Of a stretch of 50,853 nucleotides of DNA, positions 28,959 through 39,021 are shown in pieces. Origin of the DNA: Candidatus Methylomirabilota bacterium (GTDB taxonomy: Bacteria > Methylomirabilota > Methylomirabilia > Rokubacteriales > DASRDR01); contig DASRDR010000130.1 in NCBI GenBank assembly GCA_035652475.1, positions 1 through 50,853 of the forward strand. Direction: 5' to 3'. The position numbers and the translations under genes are program-made. The notes under the pieces are model-generated. The model did no database searches and had not been told where the DNA came from. It saw nothing but the letters and a program-made list of their open reading frames with translations. The first letter of the stretch is position 1. The number at the start of each line of letters is the position of its first letter.

Positions 28959-29302
28959 CCGGAGGCCGCCGCGCCGGCGGCGGAACCGCGCGCCACCCGA
29001 GCGCCGCCGGCTCCAGGCGCCGCGTCGAGGCGACCGCGCGCGGCCCGTCCACCGCGACCCGGACGGCCCTCGGGCCGGTCCCCCTCTCGACGGTGCGCGC
29101 TCCGACGGGCACGGCTATAATGGCGAAGCTCGCGGCTTCGGAGGGGGCCCGGGCGCCTTGGTGGTTGCATGCAGTGGGACGTGTCTGAGCGACCGCAGCA
29201 CGCGCGAGGGTCTCCGCTGGTCGGCTCCGGCCGCGCTCGCGGCGTCCGCCGCGCCCCCGCCCCTGGCCGCCCCGCGTCCGCGGCCGGTCCCTGCCTGACG
29301 CC

Positions 29303-30046
29303 GTGAGCGACGCCTCGGGCCGCGCGCTCGCCGGGCGGGTCTCGGACGAGGCGATGGCGGTGTTCAGCCGGCTCGCCGACGCGGTGGGCCACGAGCTCCG
29401 GAACCCGCTCGGGGTCATCACGAACTCGGTCTACTACCTCCGCATGGTGCTCCCGGAGGACGAGCGCTACCGGAAGCACCTCGACATCCTGCAGCGGGAG
29501 GTCTCCACCGCGGCGCGGATCGTCGCCGAGCTGGTGGAGGTGGCGCGGGTGGCGCCGCCCAGCCCCGCGCCGACCGACCTCAACGCGCTGGTGCGGCGGG
29601 TGGTGGACCGCGTGGCGCGACCGCCCGCCGTCCAGCTCGGGGTCGAGCTGGAGCCTGCCGGACCCGTGCTCCGGGTCGATCCCGACCAGGTCGAGCTCGC
29701 CCTCGGCCACCTCGTCGCCAACGCGCTCGAGGCGATGCCGGCCGGCGGCACCCTGACCGTCCGCACCGCCCGCGGGCCGCGCGGCGACACGGTGTCGGTG
29801 GCCGACACCGGCGTCGGGATCCCGCCCGAGCACCTGGACCGGATCTTCGAGCCGCTCTTCACCACCAAGCCACGCTGCCTCGGGCTCGGGCTCACGGTGG
29901 CCCGGGCCCTGGCGGAGGCCAACGGGGCGCGGGTCCAGGTGGAGAGCGCGCCCGGCCGCGGCAGCCGCTTCGACCTGTGCTTCCCCCGGCCGGAGGCGCG
30001 CGAGCGCGGGCGGCCGGGCGCGGACGCGGCGCCCGGCGAGGCCTGA
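29303..30046 (+). CDS. Soluble sensor-less histidine kinase (HisKA + HATPase_c only)
   Basis: H-box AVGHELRNPLGVI, N-box HLVANALEAM, G1 VADTGVGIP, F/G2 FEPLFTTK...GLGLTVAR. No TM segment or input domain. Confidence 0.85.
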   Translation: MSDASGRALAGRVSDEAMAVFSRLADAVGHELRNPLGVITNSVYYLRMVLPEDERYRKHLDILQREVSTAARIVAELVEVARVAPPSPAPTDLNALVRRVVDRVARPPAVQLGVELEPAGPVLRVDPDQVELALGHLVANALEAMPAGGTLTVRTARGPRGDTVSVADTGVGIPPEHLDRIFEPLFTTKPRCLGLGLTVARALAEANGARVQVESAPGRGSRFDLCFPRPEARERGRPGADAAPGEA

Positions 30047-30058
30047 CGGGCGACCGGC

Positions 30059-31975
30059 ATGATCCAGCCGCGCGTGCTCGTCATCGACGACGACCCCGGC
30101 ACCTGCGAGACGATCGGGGACGTCCTCCAGGCCCGCGGCATCGACGTGCAGACGACCACCCGCGGGAAGACCGCGCTGGAGCGCCTCGCGAGCGTGCCGG
30201 TCGACGTGGCGATCGTCGACATCCGGCTCCCCGACCTCCCCGGCCTCGAGCTGCTGGACGCCGCCCGGATGATCCGGCCCGACCTCGAGGCGATCGTGAT
30301 CACCGGCTACGCGTCGGTGGCCACGGCGGTCCAGGCGATCAACACCGCGGCGTTCGCCTACTTCGTGAAGCCGTTCGACATGAACCAGCTCCTGGTCACG
30401 CTCGACAAGGCGCTCGAGAAGCAGCGCCTGGCCCGGGCGCTCCGGGAGTCGGAGGAGCGTTACCGGCTCCTCATCGACAGCATCGGCGATGCCGTGTTCC
30501 TGCTCGACCTGGAGGGGCGGGTCGTGTTCGCGAACCGCCGGGCCGTCGACCTGAGCGGCTACCCGGAGGCGGACCTCCTGGGCCGCCCCCTGCTGGCGCT
30601 GCTGGCGCCCGAGGGCGCCCGGGCGGTCGAGGCGCCGCTGGCCGCCGCGAACATCGGGACGGGCGTGCTCCCGGTCCACGACGTCCGGCTGCTCCGGCAG
30701 GACGGCCGGAGCCTGTGGGTGGACGTGACGGTCAGCGGGGTCGTGAAGGGCGGCCGGCTGGTCGGGCGGCTCGGGGTCATGCACGACGTCACCGAGAAGA
30801 AGCGGCTGGAGGACCAGCTCCGGCACAGCCAGAAGCTCGAGGCCGTCGGGCGGCTGGCCGGCGGGGTCGCCCACGACTTCAACAACCTGCTCGCGGTGAT
30901 CATGGGCTACAGCGACCTCATCCGGGTCAACGCCCGGAAGAGCGACCGCCTGGCCCGCGACATCGAGGAGATCCGCCGGGCCAGCGAGCGCGGCGCCAGC
31001 CTGACCCAGCAGCTGCTGGCATTCAGCCGCGGGCAGCTGCTGCAGCCCCAGGTGGTCGAGGTCAACGCGCTGGTGGGCGCGATGGCCGACATGCTCCGCC
31101 GGGTCATCGGCGAGGACATCGAGCTCGAGCTCCAGCTCGATCCGGAAGCCGGCTGCGTGACCGGCGATCCCGGCCAGCTGGAGCAGGTCGTCCTGAACCT
31201 CGTCCTGAACGCGCGGGACGCGATGGCCCGTGGAGGCCGCCTGACGCTCGAGACGGCGCGCGTCGACCTGGACGTCCGCCACGTCGAGCACCACGCCGGA
31301 GCAGGCCTGGGCCCCCACGTGCGGCTCACCGTCCGCGACACCGGCTGCGGCATGCCGCCCGAGGTGATGGCCCACCTCTTCGAGCCGTTTTTCACGACGA
31401 AGGAGCCGGGCCGCGGCACCGGGCTCGGCCTCTCGACCGTCTACGGGATCGTCAAGCAGCACGGCGGGCACGTCGAGGTCGACAGCCAGCCGGGCCAGGG
31501 CAGCACGTTCCGGGTCCACCTGCCCCGGGTCGACGCCGAGCCCGAGCCGCAGCGGCCGGCCGCGACCGGCAAGGCGCGGCCGCGCGGCACCGAGACCGTG
31601 CTGGTCGTCGAGGACGAGGAGGCGCTCCGGGACCTGATCGGACGGATCCTCGGCCACAGCGGCTACACGATCCTGCCCGCCGGCGACGGCGAGGAGGCGC
31701 TGGCGCTGGCTGGCAAGCACCCGGAGCCGATCCACCTGCTGGTGACCGACCTGGTCATGCCGCGGATGGGCGGGTTCGAGCTCGCCGCCCGGGTGCGCGG
31801 CGCGCATCCGGAGACCCGGGTGCTCTACCTGTCGGGGTACAGCACCGAGACCCTGGAGGAGCGGGCCGACGTGGGCGCCGACGCCGTGCTCCTCCAGAAG
31901 CCGTTCACGCCGGACGCGCTGCTGCGGACGGTGCGCGAGGTGCTGGACCGGCCGGACGCCCGGCCCGCCCGGTAG
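30059..31975 (+). CDS. Hybrid sensor kinase: REC - PAS - HisKA - HATPase_c - REC
   Basis: N-terminal REC (VLVIDDD...[13 protein letters not shown]...VKPF), PAS ([21 protein letters not shown]), H-box [11 protein letters not shown], HATPase ([24 protein letters not shown]), C-terminal REC (VLVVEDEE...[13 protein letters not shown]...QKPF). Confidence 0.9.
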
Positions 31976-32600: not shown

Positions 32601-33767
32601 TTAGGCGACGGTCGAGCCGACTCCGGCTCGCCGCCCGGGCCGCTGGGGACGCCCGCCGGCGCTGGACACCGTGAGGACGTGGAGGACGTCCTTCAGGCTC
32701 AGATACCCGACGAGCCGATCGCCGTCGAGGACGGCCAGGCGGCCGAGTCCGTTCCTGGAGAGCTTCTCGAGTGCCGCGGTGAGGCGATCGCCCGGGGCCG
32801 CCGCCAGCGCCTCCTCGAGCGGGCGCATGACCTCACGCACCGGCGTCGTGGCCCAGCGATCTCGGGCCACGTCCCCGAGTTGGTGGACGGTGAGGATGCC
32901 CAGGACGCGGCCGCCGTCCAGCACCGGGAAACTCGTGACGTGGTGACGCCAGAAGTAGTCGTCGACGGCCGCCGCGAGCGGCAGGTCTGGCCGGAGGTGG
33001 ATCACGTCCGTCGTCATCACATCGCGAACGGCGAGGGGTCCCAGGGTCCGCCGAAGGACGACCTGCTGGTAGCTGCCTTCGGCGGCCTGCCGGAGGAACA
33101 GGCCGATCAGGACGAGCCACAGGCCTCCGAGGAACTCGCCGGTGAGCCCTCGCAGGATGCCGAGCCCCATCAGGACCACGCCGACGGCCGAGCCCGCGCG
33201 GCTCGCCACGCGCGTCGCCCACTGGAGGTTGCCCTTCGCGCGCCAGAGCGCGGCGCGCAGGAGGCGGCCCCCGTCGAGGGGAAAGCCGGGGACCAGGTTG
33301 AACGCGCCGACCACGAGGTTCACGGTCCCCAGGTAGCGTAGGATCGCCGCCAGTGTCGGTCGCGCGCCGGCGAGCCCGGCGGCGGCCAGCGCGAGGCCGC
33401 CGAGGGCGAAGCTCGTGAGCGGGCCCGCGATCGCCACGCGAAACTCGACGCCCGGGCTGTCCGGCTCGCGCTCGAGCTGCGAGACGCCGCCGAAGATGTG
33501 GAGCGTGATGGCGGAGACGGGCAGGCCGTGGCCCCGAGCCACCACGGAGTGGGAGAGCTCGTGCAAGAGGACGGAGACGAAGAGCAGAAGGGCGGCCACG
33601 AGCCCGCTGATCCAATAGGTGCGCGCGGCCACGTCGGCCAGCACGTGGGGGAAGTAGCCTACGGACAGGCTCCACGCCAGGAGTCCGTAGACGACGAGCC
33701 AGCTCGCGTGGACCCGGACCGGGATCCCGGCGACTCGGAAGAGCGTGACGGCGTTATCCATCATCAT
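32601..33767 (-). CDS. Site-2 protease (M50 family) with tandem C-terminal CBS domains
   Basis: ATGATGATG start after GGGAGGA. HELSHSVVA (HExxH), NLVPGFPLDGGR, then two CBS repeats (VRDVMTTDVIHL..., VREVMRPLEE...LAVLDGDRLVGYLSLKDV). Confidence 0.9.
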   Translation of the reverse strand: MMMDNAVTLFRVAGIPVRVHASWLVVYGLLAWSLSVGYFPHVLADVAARTYWISGLVAALLLFVSVLLHELSHSVVARGHGLPVSAITLHIFGGVSQLEREPDSPGVEFRVAIAGPLTSFALGGLALAAAGLAGARPTLAAILRYLGTVNLVVGAFNLVPGFPLDGGRLLRAALWRAKGNLQWATRVASRAGSAVGVVLMGLGILRGLTGEFLGGLWLVLIGLFLRQAAEGSYQQVVLRRTLGPLAVRDVMTTDVIHLRPDLPLAAAVDDYFWRHHVTSFPVLDGGRVLGILTVHQLGDVARDRWATTPVREVMRPLEEALAAAPGDRLTAALEKLSRNGLGRLAVLDGDRLVGYLSLKDVLHVLTVSSAGGRPQRPGRRAGVGSTVA

Positions 33768-34190
33768 CGATCCTCCCTTTCCAGGAGGAAGGCGGCCGAG
33801 ATCGGCACGACAGGCTCCGTCACGAGGATACCCCTGCGCGCCGAGCGCGGCATTGGCTGGCTCCACTACCGCCCGCAGACACCCCAATCCGGCGTGGCGT
33901 CCCTCCGCGGAACGGACCGGACGCGTGGCCATGAGCGTGAGGCCCTCCTCCCCACCCTGGCGTCGGTCGCGGGACCGGCCACCCCACCGGTGGGGTTTCG
34001 CGCGGGAGGATGTCGCTCGTGCACAGGCGCTGGTACGCGATCTGGTCGGAGCGAGGGGCCAGCGCCCGTCGCCGTCGCCGACGGCCCGGACCGCACAGTG
34101 TAGTCCCGACGGCGAGGTGGCGGGGCCCATCTCCAACAAGCCGGGACGGGTCCTCCGATACTCTCTTGCCCCCCCCGGGGGGGATGTAAC

Positions 34191-34220
34191 TTGTCATGTC
34201 GGGCCCCTTCCCCGTCGAAT
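34191..34220 (+). promoter_or_regulatory. Promoter-like TTGTCA-N18-TCGAAT in the long non-coding region upstream of the KaiC-like operon
   Basis: TTGTCA at 34191-34196, TCGAAT at 34215-34220. It would give a leader of about 260 nt. A C8G7 palindrome (34169-34183) lies just upstream. Confidence 0.25.
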
Positions 34221-34483
34221 CGATCCGGGGCGAGAGAGCGACATGGACGACGATTCCCGTCCTTGGACGGGCGGGCACGGGCCACCCCGGTGACCTCGAC
34301 CGGCTGCTCTACCAGCGGATGGGAGCGGCTGGGGCCGATCGACACTGGCCAAGCCCGTGGAGTTCGAGCGGTCGTGCACGGATAGTGGACGAGGATCCTC
34401 GGACGCAGGGGGGCCGACGGAGCACTCAGCGAGCGTTAGCCGGTTGCGGCGGCGATTCGCTCCCGGGTGAGAGGCGGAGGGAG

Positions 34484-34882
34484 ATGGACGGCGCAGAGGG
34501 CCTCCTCGAGGCGGCGGGCATGCGCCACCCCTGTGACCTCGACCTGCTGCTCTTCTTCGACGCGCACCCGCATGGGCTCCTGACCGCCGAGAAGCTCGCG
34601 GCGCTGGTTGGCTATGACGCCCAGCAGGTGGGGCGGTCCCTCGAGTGGCTCGTGACCAAGGGCCTGCTGAGCCGGTCGCTCAATCCCAACCACCCGCACG
34701 TGGCGCGGATGTATCGCCTCAGACCGGAGGCGGGCGAGGACTGGCTCGCCCCGCTCCTGCGGCTCGGATCCACCCGAGCGGGCCGGCTCATGCTGATACG
34801 CCGGGTGCGCGAGCGGGCGGAGGAGCGGAATGGGCAGGCGCTGGGCGTCGAGCCCGCTCCGCCGGCGCAAGGAGGCCGATGA
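34484..34882 (+). CDS. Small winged-helix (MarR-like) protein, first gene of the KaiC-like operon
   Basis: ATG after GGAGGGAG. CDLDLLLFFDAHPHGLLTAEKLAALVGYDAQQVGRSLEWLVTKGLLSRS fits a wHTH recognition-helix/wing pattern. Third-position GC becomes high only from this ATG. The stop overlaps the KaiC start (ATGA). Confidence 0.6.
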   Translation: MDGAEGLLEAAGMRHPCDLDLLLFFDAHPHGLLTAEKLAALVGYDAQQVGRSLEWLVTKGLLSRSLNPNHPHVARMYRLRPEAGEDWLAPLLRLGSTRAGRLMLIRRVRERAEERNGQALGVEPAPPAQGGR

Positions 34883-36417
34883 TGCCTGAACGGGACCTCG
34901 TCCAGACTGGGATCAGAGGGTTCGACGATATCCTGGCGGGCGGCGTGCCGCGCGGCCACATCGTCCTCGTGGAGGGGACCTCCGGCACCGGGAAGACGAC
35001 GCTCGGCCTCGAGTTCGTCTATCGCGGGGCGAGCCAGTTCGACGAGCCCGGGATCGTCGTGGTCTTCGAGGTGTCCCCGGACAAGCTGGTCCGGGATGCC
35101 GCGTTGTTGGGCTGGGAGCTCCGCGAGCTCGAGCGTTATGGTCGGCTCAAGATCATCTTCACCACCCGGCAGGTCTTCCTGCAGGAGATCCAGCAGGCGG
35201 ACAGCCTGCTCCTCGCGGAGGCAGCGACGATCGGCGCGCGCCGCATCTTCGTCGACGGTCTCGTCCGGCGGACCGCCGACGCGAACGGGGGAACCGCCAC
35301 CCCGGAGGAGTTCCACCTCCTCGCCGAGGGGCTGAACCGCGAGCGCCTCACCGCCATGCTCGGCGTGGAAGTCGGCGACCTGGGGGAGGCGCGGCCCGCC
35401 CCTCCGGCGCCGGAAGAGTTCATCGCCGACACCATCATCCGGCTCCGGCTCGAGCCGATGGAGCGGGCGGTGCTCCGGTCGATCGAGGTTGTCAAGGCGC
35501 GTGGCCAGGACTATCGCCTGGGCCGCCATTCCTTCCGGATCGTCGATGGCCAGGGGACCGAGGTCTACCGGCGGGTCCAGGCGCCCCGGGAGGTACCCCG
35601 TGAAGAAGCGGCGGCGTTCGACCCCACGACGCGGGTCTCGACGGGCATCCCGGGCCTCGACGAGCTGACGAACGGGGGATTCTTCCCCGGCAGCACCACG
35701 ATGGTGGTCGGAATCACCGGCTCCGGCAAGAGCGTCATGGCCCTCCAGTACATCGCCGAGGGCGATCGGCGCGGGGAGCGGAGCCTGATGGTCACGCTGG
35801 ACGAACCGCGGGCTCAGGTCCTCCGGAACGCCGCCGGCATCGGCATCGACCTCCAGCATGCGATCGACCGGGGGTTCGTCCGGCTCGTCTACGACCGACC
35901 CCAGGAGATGGAGATCGACCGCCACTTCCTTCAGCTCGAGGAGACCGTCCGGGAGTTCCGGCCGCGGCGCGCCGTGATCGACAGCCTGTCGACCTACGGC
36001 TCGAGCCTGGGCCCGGCGGGCCGCAGCTTTCGCGACTTCTTCCACGCCGTCATCGCCCTCATGAAGGAGTACCAGGTCACGGCGATCTACAACCACGAGA
36101 ACCCGGAGCTGCTCGGGATGTCCTCGATCATGGGCCCCTTCGGCGTCAGCTCGCTGGTCGACAACGTGATCCTCCTCAATTTCGTGGAGCTGGGGGACAC
36201 GTTCCGGCACGCGCTCACGGTGGCGAAGATGCGGGCCAATCCGACCGACCGGACCACGCGGGAGTGCGAGATCGTGCCCGGCGTCGGGATGCGCCTCCTC
36301 CCAGGAGCGATCCGGTCCGGGGCCGTCCGCCGGCTGCCCTTCGCCGAGTACCAGAGCCTCGTGGCGCGCTCGCCGGAGCGTCACGCGGCGTCCGGCGAGC
36401 CGGCGCCGCCGGAGTGA
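34879..36417 (+). CDS. kaiC: KaiC-family double-domain RecA-like ATPase
   Basis: Two KaiC domains: GIRGFDDILAGGVPRGHIVLVEGTSGTGKTTLGLEF and GIPGLDELTNGGFFPGSTTMVVGITGSGKSVMALQY. ...VIDSLS..., VKARG/AKMRA. SD AAGGAGG. Confidence 0.9.
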   Translation: MMPERDLVQTGIRGFDDILAGGVPRGHIVLVEGTSGTGKTTLGLEFVYRGASQFDEPGIVVVFEVSPDKLVRDAALLGWELRELERYGRLKIIFTTRQVFLQEIQQADSLLLAEAATIGARRIFVDGLVRRTADANGGTATPEEFHLLAEGLNRERLTAMLGVEVGDLGEARPAPPAPEEFIADTIIRLRLEPMERAVLRSIEVVKARGQDYRLGRHSFRIVDGQGTEVYRRVQAPREVPREEAAAFDPTTRVSTGIPGLDELTNGGFFPGSTTMVVGITGSGKSVMALQYIAEGDRRGERSLMVTLDEPRAQVLRNAAGIGIDLQHAIDRGFVRLVYDRPQEMEIDRHFLQLEETVREFRPRRAVIDSLSTYGSSLGPAGRSFRDFFHAVIALMKEYQVTAIYNHENPELLGMSSIMGPFGVSSLVDNVILLNFVELGDTFRHALTVAKMRANPTDRTTRECEIVPGVGMRLLPGAIRSGAVRRLPFAEYQSLVARSPERHAASGEPAPPE

Positions 36418-38132
36418 GTCGGCCGACCGGGATGCCCGCCGTCGACGCAGCCGCGTTCGCCTCCGACCGGGCCCGGGCAGCCCTCGGGCGGTACGCCGCG
36501 GTGTCGCACCTGACGGTTCAGGTCCACGGCGTCGGTGAGGAGCTCCTCGCGGGCCCCCTGGATCCGAGCCCCCTGGATCCGAGCCCCCTGTTCGAGCTGT
36601 TCGCGCCGGGGCGGCATGATCCCGGCCTGTTCGCGAACTGCCTCCGGCGGTGCCTGACGGCCACCGAGGGGCCCTCCGCCGTCGTCGTCGAGGACCACCA
36701 TGGCCTGGCGCTGGTGGGGACGGCACTCCGGCTGGCGGGCGAAATCGTCGCCGTGGCGGTGGCCGGCTACGTCCTGACGAAGCACCTGGACCAGCGCGAG
36801 ATCGAGCGCCTGGCCCGCGACGGCGGGCTCTCGTTCGAGACCGTGTGGAGGGCGGTCCGTCGGGAGCTTCCGGTGTCCCGGGCGCGGCTGGTCGTGTCCG
36901 GCGAGCTCTTGGGCGTCCTGGGCGAGACGCTCCTGAGCGAGCACTACCGCACCCGGCTCCTCGAGGACAGCGCCGTCCGGCTCGCCGAAGCGGACGAGGC
37001 GAAGGATCGGTTCCTGGCGGTCGTCTCCCACGAGCTCCGCTCACCCCTCCACGCGATCCTGGGGTGGACGCAGGTGCTGCGGTGCGGGAAGCGGGACGAG
37101 GCGCTGATCGAGCGCGCGCTCGACACGATCGAGCGGAACGCGAGGGCCCAGGCGCACCTGATCGACGACCTGCTGGACGTCTCGCGTATCATCGCCGGGA
37201 AGCTCCGTCTCGACCCGCGTCCGATCGAGCTCCGGCCCGTCATCGAGGCTGCCCTCGACGTCGTCCGCCCGGCGGCGGAGGCCCGGCGGATTCGCCTCGT
37301 GTCGGAGCTCGACGCCCCGGTCGGGCGGGTCCTCGGTGATCCGACCCGGCTCCAGCAGGTGATGTGGAACCTCCTCGCCAACGCGGTGAAGTTCAACGTG
37401 GACGGCGGGCACGTCGTCGTCCGGCTCCGGCAGGAGGGGTCGCAGCTCGAGGTCACGGTGACCGACACGGGACAGGGGATCCACCCCGACTTTCTCCCCC
37501 GGATCTTCGACCGGCTCAGCCAGGCCGACACCACGACGGCGCGGGCCCACGGCGGGCTCGGGCTCGGCCTCGCGATCGTCCGCCACCTCGTCGCCCGCCA
37601 CGGCGGGACCGTTGGCGCCGACAGCCCGGGCGAGGGGCAGGGTGCCTCCTTCGTCGTGACGCTGCCCCTCGCGGCCGACGGCGAGGGAGGCGAAGCCGAG
37701 CGGACGGAGGCGAGCCAGGCGGTCGGATCCGGGGCGGGCCCCCAGCCGAGGCTCCAGGGCCTGCGCGTACTCGTCGTGGATGACGACGCCGATTCGCGCG
37801 AGGTGCTCGCGACGATCATCCAGCAGGCCGGCGGCAGCGTGAGCGCCGCCGAGTCAGCGGCGGTCGCCCTCGCTCGCCTCGACTCGGCGGCCCCCGACAT
37901 ACTCGTGGTGGACATCGGGATGCCGGGTGAAGACGGCTACGCCGTGATCCGGAAGATCCGGGCCCGCGGGACCCCCCTCGCGCGAATCCCGGCCGCGGCG
38001 GTGACGGCGCACACTGGGGAGGACGACCGGGCCCGGGCGCTGGCCGCCGGCTTCGACCGTCACGTCCCTAAGCCCATCGATGCGGCCGAGCTGGTCGCGG
38101 TGCTCGCGCAGCTGGCCGGCCGACCCCGGTAG
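36414..38132 (+). CDS. Hybrid histidine kinase: N-terminal PocR-like sensory domain - HisKA - HATPase_c - REC
   Basis: The GTG at 36414 overlaps the KaiC stop (GTGA); an alternative ATG is at 36432. H-box FLAVVSHELRSPLHAILG, NLLANAVKF, DTGQGI, GGLGLGLAIV, REC VLVVDDDADS...VVDIGMPGEDGY...KPI. The N-terminal 170 aa with CLRRC...HHGLALVG...GYVL resemble PocR (low confidence). Confidence 0.87.
   Translation: MSRPTGMPAVDAAAFASDRARAALGRYAAVSHLTVQVHGVGEELLAGPLDPSPLDPSPLFELFAPGRHDPGLFANCLRRCLTATEGPSAVVVEDHHGLALVGTALRLAGEIVAVAVAGYVLTKHLDQREIERLARDGGLSFETVWRAVRRELPVSRARLVVSGELLGVLGETLLSEHYRTRLLEDSAVRLAEADEAKDRFLAVVSHELRSPLHAILGWTQVLRCGKRDEALIERALDTIERNARAQAHLIDDLLDVSRIIAGKLRLDPRPIELRPVIEAALDVVRPAAEARRIRLVSELDAPVGRVLGDPTRLQQVMWNLLANAVKFNVDGGHVVVRLRQEGSQLEVTVTDTGQGIHPDFLPRIFDRLSQADTTTARAHGGLGLGLAIVRHLVARHGGTVGADSPGEGQGASFVVTLPLAADGEGGEAERTEASQAVGSGAGPQPRLQGLRVLVVDDDADSREVLATIIQQAGGSVSAAESAAVALARLDSAAPDILVVDIGMPGEDGYAVIRKIRARGTPLARIPAAAVTAHTGEDDRARALAAGFDRHVPKPIDAAELVAVLAQLAGRPR
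36554..36590 (+). repeat. 15-nt in-frame tandem repeat (2.5 copies of CCCCCTGGATCCGAG) encoding PLDPS-PLDPS-PL
   Basis: Perfect copies at 36554-36568 and 36569-36583, plus 7 nt of a third. Confidence 0.85.
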
Positions 38133-38232
38133 CGCCCGGCCTCCCGCATCCGACCTGGGACCCCGAAGGCCGGGAGCGGCCTCGAGCCTCGACGCGTGCG
38201 ACCGGCCAGGTCGACGTTGACCCCTCCGACAG

Positions 38233-39021
38233 CTAACGGCCGCGGAAGGCGGGCGGCCGCTTCTCGGCGAACGCCCGGACGCCCTCGGCGAAGTCCTCGG
38301 TGTGGCCGCTCTGCGCGATGGCCTGGCTCTCGTGCTCCATCTGGGTCTCGAGGCTCTCGGTCGTCGACAGGTGCAGGAGCCGCTTGCCCCGCCCGAACGC
38401 GAGCGTGGGGCCCTGGGCCAGCTCCGCGGCCAGGCGCCGGACCGCCTCCGGGAACTCCGGGTCGGGCACCGCGCGCGTGGCCAGGCCCCACTCGACCGCC
38501 TCGCGGGCGGTGAGCACGCGGTTCGTGTAGAAGAGCTCCATCGCGCGCCGGAGCCCCACCAGCCGCGGGAGCCAGTAGGTCGAGGACCCGTCCGGCGACG
38601 CGGCGATCCGCGAGTAGGCCATGGTGAACCGGGCCGACTCGGCCGCGACCACCAGGTCGCCCGCCAGCGCGAGCGCCAGGCCGCCGCCGGCCGCGACGCC
38701 GTTGACCGCGGTGATCACCGGCTTCGGGGTGCGGACCAGCCGCGAGACCACGCCGTGGATCTGCGTGGTGAGCTCCTTGAGGAGGATCCCGATCCGCGGG
38801 AGCGCCTGGACGAACTCCTTCACGTCCCCGCCGCCGCAGAACGCCTTGCCGGCGCCGGTCAGGACGATGCAGCGCACCCCGGGATCCTCGTCCACCTCCA
38901 GCACGGCATGGAACAGTTGCTGGGCGAGCGGCAGCGTGAGCGCGTTGAACGCGTCCGGACGGTTGAGCGTGATGGTCGCGATGCCCCGGTCCCGCTCGAG
39001 CGTGATGGCGTCGTACCGCAT
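38233..39021 (-). CDS. Enoyl-CoA hydratase/isomerase (crotonase) family protein
   Basis: ITLNRPDAFNAL...VLTGAGKAFCGGGDVKEF...AVNGVAAGGGLALALAGD. ATG at 39021 after GGAGGGGG. Confidence 0.9.
   Translation of the reverse strand: MRYDAITLERDRGIATITLNRPDAFNALTLPLAQQLFHAVLEVDEDPGVRCIVLTGAGKAFCGGGDVKEFVQALPRIGILLKELTTQIHGVVSRLVRTPKPVITAVNGVAAGGGLALALAGDLVVAAESARFTMAYSRIAASPDGSSTYWLPRLVGLRRAMELFYTNRVLTAREAVEWGLATRAVPDPEFPEAVRRLAAELAQGPTLAFGRGKRLLHLSTTESLETQMEHESQAIAQSGHTEDFAEGVRAFAEKRPPAFRGR

Follow-up and report, generated by a model that had tools for sequence, protein, structure and literature searches.

The role of KaiC homologues outside the cyanobacteria, and the route by which they reach gene expression, is an open question. 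A contig of a Candidatus Methylomirabilota bacterium (DASRDR010000130.1, assembly GCA_035652475.1) raises it in compact form. Within the 50,853 nucleotides that were analysed, which we call the window and which have a G+C content of 75%, the plus strand from 34484 to 38132 is filled by three open reading frames (ORFs) encoding a small winged helix-turn-helix (wHTH) protein, a KaiC homologue and a hybrid histidine kinase. A first-pass annotation, made from the letters alone, had read this as a KaiC-based signalling cassette lacking KaiA and KaiB, and had known of no precedent for its architecture. The first part of that reading is borne out: the cassette is self-contained, has neither KaiA nor KaiB, and is conserved as a triad. 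The second part stands only in part: a KaiB-less KaiC with a hybrid kinase has been published in Pseudomonas, but the wHTH partner and the PocR-type sensor of the kinase appear undescribed. In this KaiC clade a compact, conserved cassette ties a small DNA-binding protein genetically to KaiC, and a candidate operator is visible in relatives; how a KaiB-less KaiC reaches DNA is thereby made testable with three recombinant proteins.

Conservation of the three-gene cassette

The three genes form an operon that is real and conserved beyond what chance would produce. Two surveys carry this conclusion. A metagenome scan keyed on the PCDLDLL motif of the wHTH protein gave 210 matches, from which 80 loci were kept. 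Among the 63 of these with enough downstream sequence, KaiC lies directly 3' of the wHTH gene in 61, and the remaining two have a truncated KaiC; a PocR-type kinase comes next in 32 of 40. The second search was anchored on KaiC, and is therefore unbiased as to the wHTH gene. It found 28 genome loci, with hosts in the Rokubacteria/Methylomirabilota, the Acidobacteriota (Vicinamibacterales, Bryobacteraceae, 'Acidoferrum'), the Chloroflexota (Limnocylindria) and the Myxococcales (Myxococcota). Where enough sequence was available on both sides (26 loci), the full triad is present in 14, spread over four phyla, and the kinase in 20; four Rokubacteria loci have the wHTH gene and KaiC only, six have KaiC and the kinase only, and in one KaiC stands beside an insertion-sequence-like gene. 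On a neighbour-joining tree the triad is the predominant state, with scattered losses. The genes flanking the cassette are unrelated and differ from locus to locus, and wHTH, KaiC and kinase occur together in seven contexts whose neighbourhoods are unrelated. The neighbourhood survey on which the first-pass annotation had made its reading depend thus finds the triad recurring well beyond the window's own lineage.

KaiA and KaiB are absent from these loci. Probes for the Synechococcus elongatus proteins were first validated against Pfam (102 bits for KaiB and 203 bits for KaiA); phmmer and tblastn searches of the window and of 115 related loci gave no match to either. The possibility that an adjacent kaiB gene had simply been lost from this genome finds no counterpart among the relatives.

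Several loci depart from the common arrangement in ways that concern the partners of KaiC. In the Rokubacteria metagenome-assembled genome (MAG) AR_45 (locus L008, 9421-12299) a second two-domain KaiC, followed by a GAF-HisKA-HATPase kinase, lies directly 3' of the triad, which shows that KaiC-kinase pairs can stand in tandem. At two loci without a wHTH gene the place 5' of KaiC is occupied by other genes, for two REC-domain proteins in one (L020, 4354-5941) and for another large kinase in the other (L021, 410-3076). A MazEF pair is found near locus L006. The partners of this KaiC clade appear, from gene content, to be modular and exchangeable.

The KaiC protein

The KaiC of the window has the two domains, with both Walker A motifs, that the first-pass annotation had ascribed to it. 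Pfam family PF06745 matches it in two stretches (E 1.7e-85, 286.5 bits), it aligns end to end with KaiC crystal structures, and the Walker A motifs are intact (GTSGTGKT and GITGSGKS). Its best match in the PDB is 8ZN5 (E 4.7e-76), a reconstructed pre-oscillatory ancestor, KaiC-beta, that does not oscillate (bioRxiv 10.1101/2024.07.23.604570); entry 8db3, which belongs with the KaiBC hourglass systems discussed below, is matched more weakly (E 8e-46). Identity to S. elongatus KaiC is about 30%, and the protein does not reach the NCBIfam equivalog cut-offs for circadian KaiC (295.2 vs 408 for PRK09302 and 225.3 vs 546 for TIGR02655). RecA, RadA and DnaB give weak matches.

Catalytic positions were read from an alignment of 26 KaiCs of the clade to S. 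elongatus KaiC, in which the numbering was verified at K52, E77/78, K294, E318/319, T426, S431/T432 and R459. Both Walker B motifs and both arginine fingers are intact, the equivalents of D145, D378, R226 and R459 being kept in all 26 members. The Glu-Glu pairs typical of circadian-clock KaiC are replaced by Glu-Val in CI and Asp-Glu in CII. The CI pair reads FEVS, with E77 retained and E78 changed to Val (E64/V65 in the window protein); the CII pair reads LDEP, with E318 changed to Asp and E319 retained (D308/E309). The S431/T432 phospho-site is Ser-Ser (S424/S425, encoded at 36148-36153), and an equivalent of T426 was not found in the alignment. Pairs of this Ser-Ser type are phosphorylated in other KaiC homologues. 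The first-pass annotation had called both pairs and the phospho-site, and its calls are exact. Since FEV, LDE, the Ser-Ser site and the lack of T426 are, like the intact Walker and arginine-finger motifs, invariant across the clade, they are lineage traits and not signs of decay; a KaiC lineage with altered catalytic pairs has been maintained across four soil phyla. Also conserved is a C-terminal motif, PFxxYxxLxSRSPER, which aligns with the A-loop region of S. elongatus KaiC and is kept equally well at loci without the wHTH gene.

Gene junctions and layout of the locus

The coordinates of the cassette and its parts are collected in Table 1. The wHTH and KaiC genes overlap in ATGA at 34879-34882, as first annotated, the wHTH stop TGA (34880-34882) overlapping the KaiC start, with AAGGAGG just 5' of it; a second ATG at 34882 could serve equally well as the KaiC start. 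The annotation had placed a second overlap, GTGA, between KaiC and the kinase. The sequence is there, at 36414-36417, but the starts of 17 homologous kinases align with residue 7 of the window protein, that is with ATG 36432, 14 nt past the KaiC stop. The kinase start is therefore more likely ATG 36432, and translation from the GTGA overlap is doubtful on this alignment. Close packing is nonetheless the rule: the KaiC and kinase genes are spaced by -4 or +14 nt in the window and by -23 to +12 nt in relatives, where the distance from the wHTH stop to the KaiC start ranges from -14 to +38 nt. The cassette has a divergent M50/CBS protease gene on its 5' side and a convergent enoyl-CoA hydratase gene on its 3' side, an arrangement which makes the three genes a self-contained unit.

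Table 1. Features of the KaiC cassette and its upstream region (window coordinates; +, plus strand)
Feature	Position	Strand	Remarks
Non-coding gap, ~720 nt, presumed promoter region	33760..34483	.	No codon periodicity; GC 65-72%
Weak palindrome-like element CGCTCCCGGGTGAGAGG	34458..34474	+	9 nt 5' of the wHTH start; resembles GCCCTCCC-NN-GGGAGGGC
wHTH gene, 132-aa MarR-like winged-helix protein	34484..34882	+	KaiC-linked family; invariant PCDLDLL motif in helix 2, including Cys17
KaiC Shine-Dalgarno AAGGAGG	34869..34875	+	Within the 3' end of the wHTH gene; read from the sequence
KaiC gene, 512-aa two-domain ATPase	34879..36417	+	CI ~34900-35574, CII ~35623-36297
Hybrid histidine kinase gene	36432..38132	+	Alternative GTG start at 36414 overlaps the KaiC stop
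PocR-like PAS/GAF-fold domain	~36432-36980	+	Invariant Cys70/Cys74 (CxxxC) and Trp139
HisKA	~36999-37196	+	Pfam
HATPase_c	~37335-37673	+	Pfam
REC	~37767-38105	+	Pfam

The G+C content at third codon positions (GC3) is 0.87-0.92 in the cassette and 0.96-0.98 in its neighbours. The window KaiC is also nearer to an Acidobacteriota MAG KaiC (78% identity) than to other Methylomirabilota KaiCs (57-70%). Together, the identity pattern and the GC3 values give a weak hint of lateral transfer of the cassette.

Two further two-component genes lie on the same strand 2.5 kb upstream (29189-31975), one for a HisKA-HATPase kinase and one for a REC-PAS-HisKA-HATPase-REC hybrid; they are not kept beside the cassette at other loci.

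The winged-helix protein and its upstream region

The small protein encoded first in the operon is a MarR-like winged helix, as had been proposed. An AlphaFold2 (AF2) model with a mean predicted local distance difference test score (pLDDT) of 82.5 has the MarR topology a1-a2-b1-a3-a4-b2-b3-a5-a6, with a short helix 1, and its top 30 Foldseek matches are all MarR-family structures (probability 1.0, TM-scores of about 0.45-0.55). Eighteen of 29 family members match Pfam MarR or MarR_2 at E<=0.01; NCBIfam has no family for the protein. The family is basic (median isoelectric point 9.8). The window protein is 100% identical to one annotated in a Methylomirabilota (Rokubacteria-type) MAG. A database search with it gave 43 close homologues, and an exhaustive profile search spanning 1.84 billion proteins gave 499 cluster representatives at E<=1e-3, of which 331 reach E<=1e-10; all are small proteins. 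Judged by these searches and by gene neighbourhoods, the family is small, distinct and essentially confined to the front of this KaiC clade.

Conservation within the protein is highest in helix 2, which carries PCDLDLLLFF with the invariant Cys17 (0.92, compared with 0.60 for the recognition helix and 0.46 for the wing). A conserved helix 2 together with variable DNA-reading parts fits the pattern expected of a protein-contact or sensing surface. We know of no counterpart of this helix in the MarR family.

Four of the window's closest relatives (L008, L009, L010 and L105) encode a conserved peptide, I-Q/K-x-I/L-x-P-T-D-P, 5' of the annotated GTG or TTG start of the wHTH gene. The peptide begins at ATT or ATC, 7 nt past a strong AAGGAG, and the wHTH gene of these relatives may use a non-canonical AUU/AUC start codon.

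The gap between the protease gene and the wHTH gene (33760-34483) is unusually long and lower in G+C, and coding periodicity, measured as G+C by codon position and most evident at the third, sets in at about 34450-34484. The gap has no counterpart in related loci, and no Rfam family is found at the gathering threshold in the whole window. Many relatives carry in front of the wHTH gene an 18-bp palindrome, GCCCTCCC-NN-GGGAGGGC, followed by GAGCATACT, which overlaps a TTGCCC -35 element. Its arms are kept and its centre is variable. The 781 kb of related loci contain 33 copies, all of them 76-106 nt 5' of the codons for the PCDLDLL motif and none elsewhere in the sequence searched. This distribution suggests that the palindrome is a candidate operator of a dimeric repressor, through which the wHTH protein would regulate its own operon.

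Two other observations concern this region. In palindrome-bearing relatives (for example L057, L062 and L040) just 12-13 nt separate a -10-like CATACT from the wHTH ATG, with no visible Shine-Dalgarno sequence, which implies that in those lineages the wHTH mRNA has little or no leader. In the window, the 5' end of the wHTH gene (34450-34553) has a direct copy 237 nt upstream, at 34213-34310, that has decayed. The copy has a length of about 105 nt and an identity of 73-80%, with indels. It covers roughly the first 23 codons, where HPCDLDLL has become HPGDLDRLL, as well as the ATG, the Shine-Dalgarno region and the palindrome-like element; its ATG opens an ORF of just 16 codons.

The hybrid kinase

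The kinase with a receiver domain of its own that the first-pass annotation had described downstream is recovered in Pfam as PocR, HisKA, HATPase_c and REC. The PocR match (PF10114) scores 25.8-28.4 bits, above the gathering cut-off of 23.9, and PocR is matched in 16 of 18 kinase homologues. The catalytic boxes are complete in the translation: SHELRSPL, NLLANAVKF, DTGQGI, GGLGLGL and VVDIGMP...T...KP. As a single-sequence query the N-terminus gave just three matches; an AF2 model built with database homologues (pLDDT 89.7) has a fold like that of PAS, GAF and IclR ligand-binding domains, and matches all three. Cys70 and Cys74 lie one helical turn apart in it, and both, with Trp139, are invariant among homologous kinases. 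A loop of this domain contains a tandem PLDPS-PLDPS duplication (~36540-36575, kinase residues ~37-48 counted from ATG 36432) that is absent from 17 homologues; the pLDDT of this block is 65, a lower model confidence. One locus reached through a kinase homologue (L116) looks degraded.

Proposed mechanism and alternative readings

On balance we lean towards reading the three-gene operon as a KaiA/KaiB-independent KaiC signalling module of the kind found in Pseudomonas, working as follows. KaiC would be a hexameric ATPase and autokinase whose nucleotide or phosphorylation state shifts slowly with stress or cell age. It would dock the kinase through the PocR/PAS-like domain, and docking would gate its kinase or phosphatase activity together with phosphotransfer to the receiver that the kinase itself carries. 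A dimer of the MarR-like protein would bind a palindrome overlapping the operon promoter and so autoregulate the cassette. The invariant helix 2 (PCDLDLLLFF), which does not read DNA, may be the surface on which KaiC, or a redox signal on Cys17, controls DNA binding, and such control would give the module a direct transcriptional arm beside its phosphorelay arm. A timer function, with the phosphorelay and the wHTH protein as outputs, is plausible, and the kinase could be an input rather than an output of the module.

A number of facts weigh against this account. Neither partner is obligatory, for the wHTH gene is missing at seven loci (L018, L019, L020, L021, L025, L029 and L031) and the kinase at four (L011, L012, L026 and L033). 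The cassette contains no Hpt domain and no DNA-binding response regulator, so that a phosphorelay has no evident target, and the contacts of KaiC with the wHTH protein and with the kinase are putative. The changes of E78 to Val and E318 to Asp could lower or alter catalysis. The wHTH protein of the window scores 25.3 bits against MarR_2, under the cut-off of 27. Scans of 34100-38400 for sigma-70 and terminator consensus sequences found none, and thus no consensus promoter. The window also has no clear copy of the palindrome; the CGCTCCCGGGTGAGAGG element lacks statistical support of its own, and across the whole window a relaxed operator pattern shows no enrichment (2 matches vs 5.3 expected).

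It is possible, though we doubt it, that the wHTH protein is a conventional local autorepressor of the MarR type, responding to a small ligand or to oxidation of Cys17 and uncoupled from KaiC, in which case KaiC and the kinase would be the whole device. A MarR-like regulator is typically encoded first in the operon that it represses, the palindrome of the relatives overlaps a promoter, the protein has an invariant cysteine, and KaiC with a kinase works without such a protein in Pseudomonas and occurs without it at the wHTH-less loci. An uncoupled repressor, however, accounts poorly for a family which, across four phyla and amid otherwise unrelated neighbourhoods, is found essentially only before this KaiC clade, for a most conserved surface that is helix 2 and not the DNA-reading elements, and for the one subclade that keeps the wHTH gene with KaiC after loss of the kinase. 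A still more tentative proposal goes the other way and has the wHTH protein read the state of KaiC directly: the ATPase or Ser-Ser cycle would bind and release it via PCDLDLLLFF, and the PocR kinase would feed in a redox or metabolite signal via its CxxxC pair. If so, a KaiC timer would need neither KaiB nor SasA nor RpaA to reach DNA but would do so in a single step, by a previously unknown KaiC output route that is widespread in uncultured soil phyla.

Two further explanations concern what KaiC itself does. A genuine timekeeper, an hourglass or damped oscillator in which a wHTH dimer replaces KaiA or KaiB in modulating KaiC autophosphorylation, for example via the A-loop-like C-terminal motif, would agree with the alignment of that motif, with the invariant Ser-Ser site and with the strict linkage of the wHTH gene to KaiC. 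We think it improbable, given that the motif is kept equally where there is no wHTH gene, the closest structure is the non-oscillating KaiC-beta, the hosts are non-phototrophic soil bacteria, and the wHTH fold is unrelated to that of KaiA or KaiB. Least probable of all, and in our judgement very improbable, is a role in DNA repair or phage defence instead of signalling, with the wHTH protein guiding a RecA-superfamily ATPase to DNA. KaiC does belong to the RecA/RadA superfamily, as its weak RecA, RadA and DnaB matches recall; the genomic contexts are variable and include the MazEF pair; and the GC3 of the cassette is slightly under that of its neighbours. Against this, the protein has the full KaiC-type double domain with a phospho-site, its partner, also conserved, is a kinase of the two-component type, the neighbourhood has no conserved nuclease or helicase gene, and PADLOC yields a weak generic P-loop match alone (mad8 at 44 bits), which is no meaningful defence system. 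A signalling module of the Pseudomonas kind remains the reading that we favour.

Comparison with known KaiC systems

The closest published systems are those of Pseudomonas, where KaiB-less kaiC genes share their operons with kinase, hybrid kinase and response regulator genes (Terrettaz et al., bioRxiv 10.1101/2022.01.26.477890). Group III KaiCs of that genus have a Ser-Ser pair, as in the P. putida KT2440 KaiC PP_3834 with its hybrid kinase PP_3835, and in P. putida the N-terminal PAS domain of the hybrid kinase is sufficient for KaiC binding. Phosphorylation of the Pseudomonas KaiC goes up with culture age and mutants are stress-sensitive; none of the associated regulators binds DNA, and a link to transcription is missing (same source). 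The cassette shares with group III the stand-alone two-domain KaiC, the lack of KaiB, the (hybrid) kinase in the operon, the Ser-Ser site and the PAS-like kinase N-terminus. Compared by published description, it differs in its PocR-type sensor with an invariant CxxxC and in the dedicated MarR-like protein before KaiC. Pseudomonas-type operons also have an associated single-domain response regulator and/or CsrA-family gene; there is no stand-alone REC protein in the window, where no search aimed at CsrA was made.

The cyanobacterial KaiABC system with SasA/CikA-RpaA resembles the cassette in its two-domain KaiC, P-loops, arginine fingers, phospho-site pair, A-loop-like motif and kinase partner. 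It differs in having KaiA and KaiB, whereas in the cassette, besides their absence, the Glu-Glu pairs are EV and DE, Ser takes the place of T432, and T426 is absent. The docking domain of the kinase also differs, having a KaiB-like thioredoxin fold in the cyanobacterial system, while the putative docking domain here has a PAS/PocR fold. The KaiBC hourglasses of Rhodopseudomonas palustris and Rhodobacter sphaeroides likewise have a non-cyanobacterial KaiC, often followed by a PAS kinase, but they need KaiB, and the R. sphaeroides KaiC has a C-terminal coiled-coil extension; neither is found here.

Direct coupling of a KaiB-less kaiC to a two-component gene, as in the cassette, is also seen in Methylorubrum extorquens, which has kaiC2-kaiR2 (conserved Ser residues are phosphorylated in its KaiC proteins, among them the Ser-Ser sites of KaiC1; PMC8069551), and in Leptolyngbya boryana, where kaiC2 is 3 nt from a histidine kinase gene (PMC11680916). 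No wHTH partner is reported for either, and their KaiCs belong to different subgroups, L. boryana KaiC2 being 25.7% identical to S. elongatus KaiC.

As for the wHTH protein, its order of secondary structures and its winged-helix core are those of the MarR family (E. coli MarR, OhrR, SlyA), and in relatives its gene stands behind a promoter palindrome. It differs from that family in its short helix 1, the sub-cut-off MarR_2 score, the invariant PCDLDLLLFF and its linkage to an ATPase and not to genes for efflux or detoxification.

Our literature search found no paper tying KaiC to a MarR-like or wHTH partner, to PocR kinases or to these phyla. The wHTH partner, the PocR/CxxxC sensor and the EV/DE catalytic variant appear undescribed. 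The KaiC-kinase core itself, set beside that of Pseudomonas by description, is a member-like variant of the known KaiB-less KaiC-kinase type.

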